Source: Eledone cirrhosa
Taxonomy: Eukaryota
Direction of reading: 5' to 3'
DNA: 64,000 nt
NCBI GenBank assembly: GCA_964016885.1
Contig: OZ024760.1
Coordinates: 6,696,001-6,760,000, forward strand
In this document: in pieces, positions 2,716 to 54,188 of the stretch
Layout of the letters: each line of letters opens with the position of its first letter
How positions within the stretch are numbered: position 1 is the first letter of the stretch
Position numbers and translations under genes: made by a program
Notes under the pieces: generated by a model
What the model saw: the letters and a program-made list of their open reading frames with translations, nothing else
Told to the model about the DNA's origin: nothing
Database searches by the model: none

Positions 2716-2940
2716 AACATAATTTTATATAGACATGGCTTCTACAGGATTAGCACTGTTTCATTCAAAGGAAATCATCAGGCTTTTCCTGATGATTTTC
2801 TTCGAATGAAGCAGTTCTAATCCTGTAAAAGTCATTTCTATATTAAATTATGTTGTAAACACTCAACTAATGTATTGAGTACCTTACTTACTGTGGTTAC
2901 TCCCGATTAAACCTTGGACTCACAAGAGATGTCAACATGA
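2716..2940 (+). mobile_element. Fold-back Penelope-like pLTR remnant with degenerate hammerhead
   Basis: Imperfect hairpin 2716-2854; CTGATGA at 2789, stem III cag/ctg, GUA triplet; followed by ACTC...GAGT hairpin 2861-2880. Confidence 0.55.
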
Positions 2941-3026
2941 ATGGACCTCCTATTTTTTATCTAAAGACATTTTTCCCAATTCCAACCCGCCCGTCCCCCT
3001 CTCAATCTATCTTATTTCTCATTCTT

Positions 3027-3062
3027 TCTTCTGATGAAAGATAAGCGTTCGAAACGTTAAGA
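3027..3062 (+). ncRNA. Degenerate minimal type I hammerhead ribozyme
   Basis: tctt-CTGATGA-(weak stem II)-GAAA-cg-TT-aaga; palindromic ACGT stem III. Confidence 0.5.
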
Positions 3063-3199
3063 CCCTCTTCCTGCTATATCAAGCGTTAACCTAATATATA
3101 TACCTTCCATATACTGTACCGATTGTGTTGCTATTTCTGTTTACCTTTTACATACATATATATATATATATATATATATATATATATATATATATATGT

Positions 3200-3513
3200 A
3201 TCATCATTTCATTTTTACGTCCGCTTTTCCCTGCTTGCAAGGGTGGGACGGGAACTGATGCTGGCTTGATTTCTACAGCTGGATGCCCTTCCTAACACCA
3301 ACCTCATTTACAGTGAGTGCTGGGTGCTTTTTTGCCATGGCACCTCCACGACCACTTTGCAGTGGAATGATATGGACCCCAGTCCCTATCATCTCATTTC
3401 TACAGCTGAGTAAACTAGAGCAATGTGAAATAAAGTGTCTTGCTCAAGGACACAACACATCATCTGGTCACAACCTTTCGATTGCAAGGCCAATGCTCTA
3501 ACTACTAAGCCAT
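3200..3513 (-). mobile_element. tRNA-derived CORE-like SINE with RTE-A tail
   Basis: A-box tggcttagt, core tccttgagcaagacact, tail gggaaaagcggacgtaaaa + (tga)n; internal deletion in head. Confidence 0.85.
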
Positions 3514-3619
3514 ATATATATATATATATATATATATATATTTGTTCGGCGCATTTTAAAATCTGGCAGAGCTCATCGCACCTCCAGGCAGAACAAAGTC
3601 CATTATTTTCTTGGGAAGG

Positions 3620-4015
3620 AGAAAGAGATAGAGAATGAGAGAGAAGAAGTAAGAAAGAGATAGAGAACGAGAGAGAAGAAGTAAGAAAGAGATAGAGAAT
3701 GAGAGAGAAGAAGTAAGAAAGAGATAAAGAATGAGAGAGAAGAAGTAAGAAAGAGATAGAGAATGAGAGAGAAGAAGTAAGAAAGAGATAGAGAATGAGA
3801 GAGAAGAAGTAAGAAAGAGATAGAGAATGAGAGAGAAGAAGTAAGAAAGAGATAGAAAATGAGAGAGAAGAAGTAAGAAAGAGATAGAGAATGAGAGAGA
3901 AGAAGTAAGAAAGAGATAGAGAATGAGAGAGAAGAAGTAAGAAAGAGATAGAGTGAGAGAGAGGAAGAAAGAAATAGTGAGTGAGAGAGAGAGGAAGTAA
4001 GAAAGAAATATAGAA
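3620..4015. repeat. About 30-bp purine-rich minisatellite
   Basis: gagagaagaagtaagaaagagatagagaat tandem. Confidence 0.9.
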
Positions 4016-4352
4016 AGCAAGAATTTGCTCCTCAGTACTTGACTGGTACTTTTTTTTATCAACATTGAAAGTTTTGAAGAGCAAAGTTCATCTTGGCAAG
4101 ATTTGAACTCATTCTCTGAGGGTTGGTTGAAAGGTTCATTGGCTGACCAAGATACTCTCATGGAATGACCAAATGAGGTTTATTTTTCAATGCAGTTATT
4201 AATAAGAAGAGTTGAAATTAATGCATGCAAGATTTCACAGCTTTAGCATCACTCATTCATAGTCAGCCTATGACTAAGATACTCTCATGGAATGACCAAA
4301 TGAGGTTTATTTTTCAACATAGTTCTTGGAAGGAAACAATGCAGTTATATAA

Positions 4353-4750
4353 AATTGTTTCTACTTTTGGCACAAGGCCAGCAATTACCCCAGTGCATTA
4401 CTGGTACTTTATTTTAACAACTCCGTAAAGATGAAAGGCAAAGTTAACCTCGGCACTCGGCAGGATTTGAACTGCCAATCGTAAAGGGCTAGAACTCTAT
4501 GCTGCAAAGCATGGCGTCCGACCCTCTACCGATACTGCCAATCTGCAGATATTAATAATTGTTTCTACTTTTGGCACAAGGCCAGCAATTATACCAGTGT
4601 ATTACTGGTACTTTATTTTATGGACCCCGTAAGGATGAAAGGCAAAGTTAACCTTGGCGGGATTTGAACTCAGATCATACAGGGCCGTAACTCTATGCTG
4701 CAAAGCATGGCGTCCGACTCTCTACCGATACTGCCAAACCACCGCCCTTA
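4353..4750 (-). mobile_element. Two tandem copies of second tRNA-SINE family (Meta-domain-like)
   Basis: Reverse complement ggcggt..ttggcagtatcggtagag, B-box gttcaaatcc, tttgcctttcatccttacggggtc, tail ggccttgtgccaaaagtagaaacaatt. Confidence 0.8.
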
Positions 4751-4856
4751 ATAATAATAGTCAGAGTTGAAATTAGTGCAGGCAAGATTTCACAGCTCTA
4801 GCATCACTCCTTCATAAATAGCTTATGAACTTTTCAACCTACCTTCGTACTTGATT

Positions 4857-5205
4857 TTGTGTGTAGTAATATGGCGTGTGTGTGTGTGTAGTAATATGGT
4901 GTTGGTGTGTGTGTGTGTGTGTAGTAATATGGTGTGTTGTGTGTGTAGTAATACGGTGTTGGTGTGTGTGTGTGTAGTAATATGGTGTTGGTGTGTGTGT
5001 GTGTGTGTGTAGTAATATGGTGTGTTGTGTGTGTAGTAATACGGTGTTGGTGTGTGTGTGTGTAGTAATACGGTGTTGGTGTGTGTGTGTGTAGTAATAC
5101 GGTGTTGGTGTGTGTGTGTGTAGTAATACGGTGTTGGTGTGTGTGTGTGTAGTAATACGGTGTTGGTGTGTGTGTGTGTAGTAATACGGTGTTGGTGTGT
5201 GTCTT
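4857..5205. repeat. (TG)-based minisatellite
   Basis: gtagtaatacggtgttggtgtgtgtgtg units. Confidence 0.9.
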
Positions 5206-5319
5206 GGCACTATTTCAAGAGGTTTTATCTAAATCCCTGTCACTAAATCTATATTGATTGATATATTGATAAATAACGATTTACTTCCTGTTCCCGATCT
5301 CACATCTTTAATAACGATC

Positions 5320-52237: not shown

Positions 52238-52535
52238 TCATCATCATCATCATCATCATCATCACCGTTTTACGTCCGTTCTCCCACGCTAGCATGGGTT
52301 AGACAGGTTGTCCTGTTGTGGGCAGTGTCTGGTCGGCTGACCTTGCCTTGCTCATACAGGAACTGATTTGGCTTGATTTCTACAGCTGGATGCCCTTCCT
52401 AACACCAACCTCATTTACAGTGAGTGCTGGGTGCTTTTTCGTGGCGCCTACACGTCCACTTTACAGTGTGGGCTGGGTGCTTTTTTGCCGTGGCACCTCC
52501 ACGACCACCTTGCGGTGGGGGGTGTGGGGGCATAT
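52238..52535 (-). mobile_element. Solo RTE-B 3' UTR
   Basis: Near-identical to 40405-40695. Confidence 0.9.
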
Positions 52536-52595
52536 GTCTATATATATATATATACGATATTAAACAAATGGAAACTATATTTATAAAACCATATT

Positions 52596-52662
52596 TATTT
52601 CATTATACATATTTCAGGGATACCATATTAAAAAATATGGCATGACTTCGTCAGATAAAATA
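52596..52662 (-). ncRNA. Minimal type I hammerhead ribozyme
   Basis: tattttat-CTGACGA-stem II-GAAA-tatgta-TA-atgaaata. Confidence 0.72.
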
Positions 52663-53191
52663 CAATATATAAACAGTTTTATAAATAATTTTGACGTACC
52701 ATAATATAAGCGACCATTATATTAGGAAGCTGTCTGGATAGTGAATTTGTTTATAATTATTTAGTTATAGCACAGTTAGAAAAAAGACGGAGAGAAAGAA
52801 GAAACGGAGGCAAAGAAGAAACAGACTGTGCTTAACACTATAAACTAAATAATTATTATCCTTCTCTCTATATATAGTACTCCCTCTCTCTTGTGTTTAT
52901 TTATCTATTGCTCTCTTATTCCTATCTATTTATATATTTTTTTCTCTCTCTCCTTTCCCTTCTCTCCGCTATATCTTTCTGTTTCTTCTTTGCCTCCCTT
53001 TCTTCTTTCTCTCCGTCTTTTTTCTAACTGTGCTTAACACTATGACTAAATAATTATAAACAAATTCACTATCCAGACAGCTTCCTAATATAATTTTTTC
53101 TACTTTTGGCACAAGGCCAGCAATTATTCCAGTGTATTACTGGTATATATTATGGTACGTCAAAATTATTTATAAGACTGTTTATATATTG

Positions 53192-53258
53192 TATTTTATC
53201 TGACGAAGGCATGCCATATTTTTTAATATGGTATCCCTGAAATATGTATAATGAAATA
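53192..53258 (+). ncRNA. Minimal type I hammerhead ribozyme
   Basis: tattttat-CTGACGA-aggcatgccatatt..aatatggtatccct-GAAA-tatgta-TA-atgaaata. Confidence 0.78.
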
Positions 53259-53491
53259 AATATGGTTTTATAAATATAGTTTCCATTTGTTTAATATTGT
53301 ATATCTACTCCAAAAACTTGTCGAGTGCTTTATATCAGTTATAAATTATTTACTTGTAACACAACAATTTTAAATAAAACCTTTGCATATATATATATAT
53401 ATATATATATATATATATATATATATATATATATATATATAAAATAAAGTTAAATAAAAAGTCAAATGTTTAAAATTTAGCTTCGTTTATT

Positions 53492-53546
53492 ACTGCTATA
53501 TATATTTCAGTGACAGCCATTTTTGGCTGTGACCTCTTCAGGCAGT
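53492..53546 (-). ncRNA. Minimal type I hammerhead ribozyme (palindrome left arm)
   Basis: Mirror of 53777-53831. Confidence 0.78.
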
Positions 53547-53776
53547 CCGAATTAGTGTGGTATAGACAAGTACATATGTTGTTGAGGTGTATAATTTTGT
53601 CAATACTCTGATATGTCCAGTTCCTGGTTAGGTTGTTATTTCTCTGAGGAACTGGAATCATATGATTCCAGTTCCTCAGAGAAATAACAACCTAACCAGG
53701 AACTGGATATATCAGAGTATTGACAAAATTATACACCTCAACAACATATGTACTTGTCTATACCATACTAATTCGG

Positions 53777-53831
53777 ACTGCCTGAAGAGGTCACAGCCAA
53801 AAATGGCTGTCACTGAAATATATATAGCAGT
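53777..53831 (+). ncRNA. Minimal type I hammerhead ribozyme (palindrome right arm)
   Basis: actgc-CTGAAGA-ggtcacagcca aaaa tggctgtcact-GAAA-tatata-TA-gcagt, then aataaa. Confidence 0.8.
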
Positions 53832-54130
53832 AATAAACGAAGCTAAATTTTAAATATTTTACTTTTTATTTAACTTTATTTTACATTACTCCGGAGTAAC
53901 CAAACCAACCTGCGCACTTCGTCGAGTGCTCCAGCCTGCATACTGAGGTGTTGGTATACAACCAACATATACTCAAAATCTATATATATATATATATATA
54001 TATGTCTATCTATATATATATATATAGATATATAGATATCTCTCTCTATATATATATATGTCTATACAATGTATCAGTGTGTATCTATCTATAGGAAGCT
54101 GGACTGGTGTAAATCCTTAAAAGGTTTATT

Positions 54131-54188
54131 ATACTATGATCATTTCAATGACCGGGTTCCATATGAATCTGGTGATATCATCAGGTAT
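54131..54188 (-). ncRNA. Minimal type I hammerhead ribozyme
   Basis: atac-CTGATGA-degenerate stem II-GAAA-tgatca-TA-gtat, then aataaa. Confidence 0.68.

Follow-up and report, generated by a model that had tools for sequence, protein, structure and literature searches.

Short terminal-module copies of Penelope-like elements with hammerhead motifs in (TA)n tracts of the Eledone cirrhosa genome

A stretch of 64,000 nucleotides from Eledone cirrhosa (assembly GCA_964016885.1, contig OZ024760.1, positions 6,696,001 to 6,760,000; hereafter the window) contains many short elements that carry hammerhead ribozyme motifs beside (TA)n tracts. They are located in, or before, the introns of a plus-strand gene with several PDZ exons, in a genome of 3.0 Gb that is rich in microsatellites. 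Judged from their sequences, these elements are terminal modules, each a pseudo-long terminal repeat (pLTR) with its tail, of about ten families of Penelope-like elements (PLEs). The short terminal-module copies in (TA)n, here called stumps, were probably generated by priming at two sites, run-off at the end of the template and head-to-head joining of the products.

Ribozyme-bearing elements in the window

The families are labelled A (53.4 kb), B (2.7 kb), C (3.0 kb), D (12.5 kb), E (12.7 kb), F (52.6 kb), F2 (19.6 kb), G (39.8 kb), H (45.1 and 54.1 kb), I (45.3 kb) and J (54.3 kb). A preliminary description of this sequence had reported fold-backs and solo motifs within (TA)n, and eight fold-back spans were recovered: 2716-2857 (84% complementary), 12573-12619, 12723-12812, 19656-19925 (75%, with filler), 39803-39862, 45277-45487, 52547-53307 and 53437-53886 (98% complementary). 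Every one of them adjoins (TA)n tracts and has a single unpaired extension. The elements to which they belong, together with solo arms and fragments, are as follows.

2716..2920, plus strand: family B fold-back with inverted tail-less arm 2716-2785, forward arm 2786-2857 and tail 2858-2920
2921..3156, plus strand: family C solo arm abutting B, with hammerhead 3027-3062, stem III CG and an eroded stem II
12462..12627, minus strand: family D (subfamily D2) fold-back with tailed arm 12596-12462 and inverted stub 12597-12627
12727..12898, plus strand: family E fold-back with the 3' half of the hammerhead only
19420..19561, plus strand: family G-type fragment with tail, beginning at about the 3' strand of stem I
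19572..19915, inverted pair of family F2: tailed arm 19572-19733 (minus strand), about 55 nt of filler, and a tail-less plus-strand arm
39730..39980, plus strand: family G fold-back with inverted tail 39730-39802, palindrome centre 39832/3 and a U3-A8-type hammerhead 39869-39906
45033..45250, minus strand: family H solo tail-less arm with hammerhead 45087-45144, its cleavage triplet mutated; the 5' end is at the family pile-up
45280..45559, plus strand: family I fold-back with strict hammerheads 45309-45369 (minus) and 45395-45455 (plus) and tail 45488-45559
52555..53387, plus strand: family F fold-back of the long class with hammerheads 52596-52662 (minus) and 53192-53258 (plus) and tail 53308-53387
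53442..53980, plus strand: family A fold-back with its centre at 53660/53661, the family 5'-end pile-up, and a tail at about 53884-53980
54094..54198, minus strand: family H solo arm with strict hammerhead 54131-54188
54235..54536, minus strand: family J (Neptune-type) tail-less arm with a 25-nt inverted tail stub and a hammerhead-like core at 54463

The G-type fragment at 19420 and the J element are additions to the preliminary description, which had also regarded the elements as unrelated in sequence. That view does not hold for the elements at 19.6 and 52.6 kb, which are 83% alike, or for those at 45.1 and 54.1 kb, which belong to one family (91%). The B hammerhead has a long stem III and is damaged on both arms of the fold-back, the D2 element retains only the 3' half of its hammerhead (the U3-A8 core is known from long copies of the sister subfamily D1), the plus arm of F2 carries a hammerhead at 19811-19873 with the core change G5A, and the F fold-back has an insert at 53088-53151 that is a piece of another dispersed repeat. 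Strict hammerheads of the A fold-back lie at 53492-53546 (minus) and 53777-53831 (plus). The B-to-C junction (2716-3156) recurs at a second locus (L146) with about 86% identity, and may stem from an ancient duplication or from mobilization of B and C together as one chimera.

A strict descriptor for type-I hammerheads finds six motifs in the window (+45402, -45362, +53200, +53782, -53541 and -54184), compared with a mean of 0.05 and a maximum of one in 100 block dinucleotide shuffles. A seventh motif (-52654) misses the descriptor by one stem II mismatch, so that the previous count of at least seven is about right, and about eight additional hammerheads are decayed. The decayed motifs include 2789 (A15.1G), -2781 (stem I missing at the fold), 3031 (eroded stem II), 19819 (G5A in the core), -45140 (NUH lost), 39873 (U3-A8 core, stem III mutated) and -54463 (weak stem I). 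Elsewhere in the genome, 34 strict motifs were found in a 600-kb sample made up of 60 segments of 10 kb at even spacing, of which 39 come from the four largest contigs, versus 0-3 per shuffle in five shuffles. The stems of these 34 motifs differ in sequence between families yet stay paired, which shows that the hammerhead motif is real. At least six more hammerhead families, absent from the window, are present in this sample (L245-L304). An Rfam scan listed no hammerhead family among the best 150 of 431 matches, which were microRNA-type hairpins below the gathering score.

The random sample corresponds to 3.6 motifs per 64 kb, so the six in the window (Poisson p=0.16) do not amount to the unusual density that had been proposed. 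Counted as family arms, the window is about three-fold richer (19 arms versus 59 per 600 kb), in a comparison that uses families defined from the window itself. Extrapolation gives roughly 170,000 strict motifs genome-wide, a rough figure because it derives from 34 motifs that are clumped. The sequence AATAAA, said to follow many of the motifs, does so by eye for four of six in the window and for 14 of 34 in the random sample.

One alternative is that the elements are TA-targeting miniature inverted-repeat transposable elements (MITEs), or chance AT-rich hairpins with fortuitous hammerheads. Their palindromic shape, the TA flanks and the near-fixed centres in G and D would suit this explanation. 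The shuffle counts and the maintained pairing of dissimilar stems speak against it, and the elements have an asymmetric tail and variable junctions where MITEs would show symmetric terminal inverted repeats, a fixed structure and no linked reverse transcriptase (RT). For families A, D1, E, F, I and J it is refuted by the linked open reading frames (ORFs) described below. Overall, we consider it very improbable. Family G was considered separately as a MITE and rejected on account of its U3-A8 hammerhead, its tail and its long copies.

The hammerheads resemble those of Cervera and de la Pena (2014) in their short stem I, an elongated stem II that has an unpaired base on its 5' side, a palindromic stem III, the U3-A8 core variant, and their occurrence as opposite-strand pairs. 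Minimal hammerheads of metazoan PLEs have been described with a palindromic stem III, low dimer-dependent activity and a U3-A8 core variant (PMC4209133). The tiny stem III reported previously for most of the window elements does not hold for B, D and E, whose stems III are long at 3-7 bp and, unlike the published examples, could fold as monomers. Another difference from that set concerns the fourth position of stem II, where A, F, F2 and H all have a C-C mismatch that is kept while the adjoining pairs covary; it possibly marks a tertiary or protein contact. Intact copies of family E (e.g. L259:4306, L291:2111) have stems I-III paired, and nearly all long copies seen carry a U4 to A change in the core. 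A guessed 5' half for family D was discarded after it gave chance-level counts (36 versus 29 for the control); the real core is of the U3-A8 type with a long loop II.

Among neighbouring features, inverted copies of a 342-nt repeat (99%) that contains a tRNA-like short interspersed element (SINE) flank the D and E elements at 12092-12433 and 12899-13240, and a third copy lies at 38180-38519. A perfect inverted repeat of 26 bp surrounds a (TA)n/(GA)n tract at 24622-24813. On the minus strand, a tandem array of 36-nt units (45930-46750) has CTGACGA in each unit. It was rejected as a hammerhead array by the descriptor, as the units lack GAAA and stems.

Family membership and clade

Copies within a family share common 3' ends at (TA)n, and vary in 5' extent and inversion point. 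Exact-pattern searches of the genome returned 29,750 matches for D1, 5,239 for A and 5,242 for I, with 0 for controls, and a first look at B gave 3,844 candidates. The preliminary description interpreted the elements as Penelope pLTRs, and proposed extending copies in search of RT and GIY-YIG ORFs. Both ideas are borne out: copies of A, D1, E, F and I elsewhere in the genome continue into Hydra-type RT/GIY-YIG ORFs, J is linked to a Neptune-type ORF (L399), and H leads to a partial RT (L141). At the D1 locus L397, an inverted copy is followed by a partial tandem, an uninterrupted 719-aa ORF, a tail-less pLTR and (TA)n, with the ORF ATG 231 nt downstream of the 5' pile-up. Family F is represented at L139, L135 and L134 by full-length pLTR-ORF-pLTR copies that include an inverted 5' copy, two pLTRs of family I flank a frameshifted ORF (L133), longer A copies have a GIY-YIG domain about 1.2 kb upstream plus RT motifs, and E is linked to an ORF at L248 and L259. 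The PLE layout of a pLTR partial tandem, an adjacent inverted 5' copy and an optional tail is present at L397, L139, L135 and L133, and a type-I hammerhead lies in the pLTR, as assessed by sequence and structure. A supposed link between B and an ORF in L267 was dismissed, since TA tracts and other DNA lie between them. Within the window, no remnant of a Hydra-type ORF was detected; in the 600-kb random sample, pieces of such ORFs make up 7.9 kb.

The predicted structure of the F protein (predicted local distance difference test score 81.6) has telomerase RT as its best Foldseek match (3du5, E 1.2e-9). With the F ORF as query, neither Pfam nor PDB sequence searches detected an RT domain, a profile search reached a retron RT at E 0.0016, and the Pfam match to GIY-YIG is weak (E 0.0015, under the cut-off). 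Among homologues of the element ORF, the top-ranking ones, which are also the only ones with a name, come from Argonauta hians and Octopus bimaculoides. Hydra-clade diagnostics include RWK/RWR, DKT, CxCX5C, CxxC and CxH (PMC8557442, section 11). RWR and DKT are both found in D1, RWK and DKT in I, and RWR and DKT in separate copies of F. The CxCX5C linker, together with CxxC and CxH in the endonuclease, is present in A, D1, E and I, and in F at L134 and L139 (one Cys is mutated in L135). By eye, no CCHH was seen in these ORFs. The Neptune linker CX2-5CxxC occurs only in the J-linked ORF (CTNRKCIIC, L399) and not in those of A, D1, E, F and I. Based on these ORF motifs, the families are assigned mostly to the Hydra clade and J to the Neptune type; Neptune as the clade of the families overall was dropped after the motif check.

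Hydra-clade PLEs are described as having 5' truncation, an adjacent inverted copy, a tail of 30-40 bp, (TA)n targeting and hammerheads (PMC8557442). The layout noted in the window is therefore the published insertion signature of these elements, and the (TA)n preference is likewise seen in the copies of the window families. Similarity to the clade, including Hydra-1_Obim and Penelope-13_HM (Craig et al. 2021), extends to the C-terminal GIY-YIG, the ORF motifs, the type-I hammerhead and the inverted 5' copy. By eye, the hammerhead of Hydra-1_oBim (PMC8557442 File S2) differs from that of every window family. The elements represent new families of a known kind, end copies of Hydra-clade PLEs and of one Neptune type, rather than a new class of retrozyme.

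The retrozyme-like class had been the other suggestion of the preliminary description, and it is not supported. Animal non-LTR retrozymes are tandem units with a hammerhead in each, and have been proposed to be non-autonomous PLE derivatives (bioRxiv 2026.07.22.740005). The window elements resemble them in being short, ORF-less and PLE-derived with a type-I hammerhead. They differ in being inverted pairs or solos, with varying junctions and paired hammerheads on opposite strands. No tandem arrays were noticed in the examined loci, and no genome-wide search for them was made. A restricted version of this explanation holds that some families (B, C, G, F2 and D2) are non-autonomous, SINE-like or retrozyme-like mini-elements, which are transcribed from short copies of their own and rely on Hydra-clade enzymes for mobilization in trans. 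For B, C, G and F2, about 2 Mb of loci yielded no ORF link, which favours this alternative and weighs against our assignment of these families to PLEs, and B copies have hardly any sequence in common on the 5' side of the hammerhead. However, arrays of B, C, G, F2 or D2 units were not seen, junctions vary between copies, G has long copies (including an inverted pair 2.3 kb apart, L249), and D looked just as orphan before locus L397. A tailed stump, moreover, lacks the second hairpin described below and would thus be predicted to yield tail-less daughters only. We regard mini-elements of this kind as improbable.

Ends of the short copies

Ends were counted in 30-copy samples taken in genome order from the start of one contig, with D1 ends and A pair spacing judged by eye. 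Each family has two fixed 3' ends about 60-140 nt apart, giving tailed and tail-less arms. Beyond most of these ends the template continues with TAT or ATAT, in agreement with the (TA)n target. Head-to-head pairs consist of one tailed and one tail-less arm in 13 of 15 cases (p=0.004), two family I pairs among the 15 having the appearance of duplicates of a single insertion. Either arm may bear the tail, and filler bases are present at many junctions. We infer that the arms arise from two priming events and not from snap-back. No report of this pairing rule was found in the open-access literature.

The 5' ends are bimodal in distribution. In family A, 7 of 30 arms end at a single base (between TC and ATA), 155 nt before GAAA, which is the exact fold point of the 53.4-kb palindrome. 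Another view of the same sample places 12 arms within -147..-161, with seven longer than 200 and six shorter than 120, three of the latter from another subfamily. Half of the short head-to-head A pairs (9 of 18, from the first 100 matches) are spaced 299-338 nt apart. For D1, 19 of 30 arms end no more than 5 nt from the junction of TT or TC with AGT, none end from -6 to -39 and 11 are longer, in a sample whose search pattern itself required the pile-up site. Pile-ups also exist in G, where the site is at about window position 39833, and in H, E, B and D2. The boundary context is pyrimidine-A in most families, and we take these sites to be initiator-like. One subfamily among the loci L305-L334 and L397 has a TATA-like stretch about 29 nt upstream of the pile-up. 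These features suggest that the pile-up corresponds to the start of transcription, and Penelope is known to have a pLTR-internal promoter with initiator and downstream promoter elements (PMC2377424). A family-specific 5' pile-up was not found in the open-access literature, and the available text of PMC4209133 describes no fixed 5' boundary of the kind seen here; the supplements of PMC11167929 and PMC4209133 may already show short copies.

Cleavage by the hammerhead does not appear to define these ends. Of 370 arms, none terminates at the cleavage base and two lie within 1 nt, in a set where many loci came from whole-hammerhead queries and are thus biased against cleavage-site ends. Two G fragments missed by the anchor used for these arms (window 19420 and L042) start approximately at the cleavage site. 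In D1 the pile-up is inside hammerhead loop II, so that short copies begin with the substrate half of the ribozyme alone, as would an mRNA starting there.

Just past the tail-less 3' end, inside the tail, a motif of the form RCTC...GAGY starts within 2-15 nt in A, B, D, E, F, F2, H and I (8 of 11 families). Its two halves are complementary in 171 of 173 matches (ACTC/GAGT or GCTC/GAGC), with the outer pair alternating between A-U and G-C. In A, D1, F and I, copies with read-through carry the motif a second time after the tailed end. The motif may fold into a hairpin that positions the reverse transcriptase. No description of this hairpin was found in the open-access literature, and the supplement of PMC11167929 (Figs S1B, S2) may show a start-site stem-loop.

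The preliminary description also offered extreme 5' truncation as an origin. The copies are indeed truncated, but not at random, since the 5' ends accumulate at a site particular to the family. In its fuller form, this explanation holds that autonomous PLEs undergo ordinary 5' truncation, that pile-ups are stall or repair hot spots caused by local hairpins or microhomology, and that the inverted arm forms by snap-back of a single cDNA. Most families have long copies with variable truncation, and several further observations favour truncation and count against run-off and two-site priming. The boundary is broad in F and in I (12 of 30 I ends are spread across -34..-89, with 18 longer), a weak 5-bp hairpin just upstream of the A boundary could stall the enzyme, and perfect palindromes, such as that of A at 53660, also fit snap-back. 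Palindromes at pLTR 5' ends, and solo pLTRs, have been noted before (PMC3846280). Other points also weigh against our interpretation. C and J have no clear 5' peak in small samples, and RCTC/GAGY is absent in C, G and J and only weakly paired by prediction in A, B and H (median 0.12-0.38). A G of the sort expected from a cap precedes the D1 site in 3,759 of 29,750 matches, where about one third of the listed cases could be inverted-arm bases, and it precedes only two of the seven A ends at -155; this signature is strong in small hand-picked sets and not so in unbiased samples. To these can be added the bias of the cleavage-end count and the partial RT of H, for which no endonuclease was detected at L141. 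Truncation with snap-back nevertheless has difficulty with the single-base pile-up in A, the empty interval past the D1 and I boundaries, the pyrimidine-A context in most families, and the D1 boundary in loop II, which lies beyond the stem where a polymerase would stall. Filler bases at many junctions and the tail on either arm are also hard to reconcile with it, and we consider it unlikely.

A possible copying pathway and the host gene

The origin of PLE tails, inversions and pseudo-LTRs is stated as open in PMC8557442 and PMC11167929. The Poseidon element PAc of Anolis uses two internal RT start sites in vitro, with a dimeric enzyme and extension of both strands, and hammerhead cleavage is unnecessary for its insertion (PMC11167929). 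Like PAc (Frangieh et al. 2024), the window families are predicted to have two internal starts, which define the tail and are close to a stem-loop where pLTR and ORF meet. Unlike PAc, which belongs to another clade and starts inside its ORF at sites described as non-homologous to the target, they would start in the 5' untranslated region (UTR), at sites mostly followed by TAT/ATAT.

According to the pathway we favour, transcription would start within the 5' pLTR and the element protein would bind the hairpins just before the ORF. Nicks in (TA)n would then prime both target strands at two internal RNA sites. After 50-330 nt, each cDNA would run off at the 5' end of the RNA. Head-to-head joining of the two short products, accompanied by filler, microhomology or resection, would complete the stump, and read-through or circular templates, on which the hammerhead may act, would account for longer copies. 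More tentatively, the duplicated RCTC/GAGY hairpin in the 5' UTR of Hydra elements could be a landing site that sets the two RT starts. A dimeric enzyme on capped linear mRNA would run off at the transcription start to leave stumps, and long or tandem copies would need read-through or a ribozyme-circularized template. We view this extension as possible, with rather more doubt than confidence.

The hammerheads of a fold-back lie on opposite strands of each pair, which precludes dimerization within one transcript. Dual minimal hammerheads on opposite strands, about 100-700 bp apart, have previously been ascribed to truncated PLEs (PMC4209133). In RNA of host sense, the predicted pair probability of stems I and II is 0.00 within the long hairpin versus 0.5-0.99 in the isolated arm. 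Because the two strands each carry one motif and the sense motif is predicted to be buried in the hairpin, stumps are unlikely to be working ribozymes or to cut host pre-mRNA. The hammerhead belongs to the RNA of the parent element and is a passenger in stumps, where it is predicted to be unfolded in the hairpin upon host transcription.

The host gene has the following exons, one of which is confirmed as PDZ.

7725-7850, 16574-16678, 19986-20078, 47905-48060, 49370-49657, 50135-50425 and 55179-55340, plus strand: exons of the multi-PDZ gene
55179..55340, plus strand: PDZ exon (Pfam PF00595, E 1.3e-9)
near 7725-7850, 16574-16678 and 47905-48060, plus strand: PDZ-like exons

The gene is presumably ZO-1/TJP-like. 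At 9180-10260, 27000-29150, 40760-42520, 15540-16250 and 17390-18140, its introns also hold large microsatellite and minisatellite arrays and RT fragments that we take to be of the long interspersed element (LINE) type.

The Hydra clade has 27 listed families, one of them in Octopus (Hydra-1_Obim; PMC8557442). The present families extend the clade to a major repeat class, at the estimated number of strict motifs given above for this genome. With many families of thousands to tens of thousands of copies each, exact positions become available for mapping 5' ends and for priming assays in vitro. The shared ends and the conserved predicted hairpin likely record how PLEs start and stop copying. If the landing-site proposal is true, about 100,000 stumps would constitute a genome-wide map of PLE start sites, and would also be a large source of intronic double-stranded RNA.

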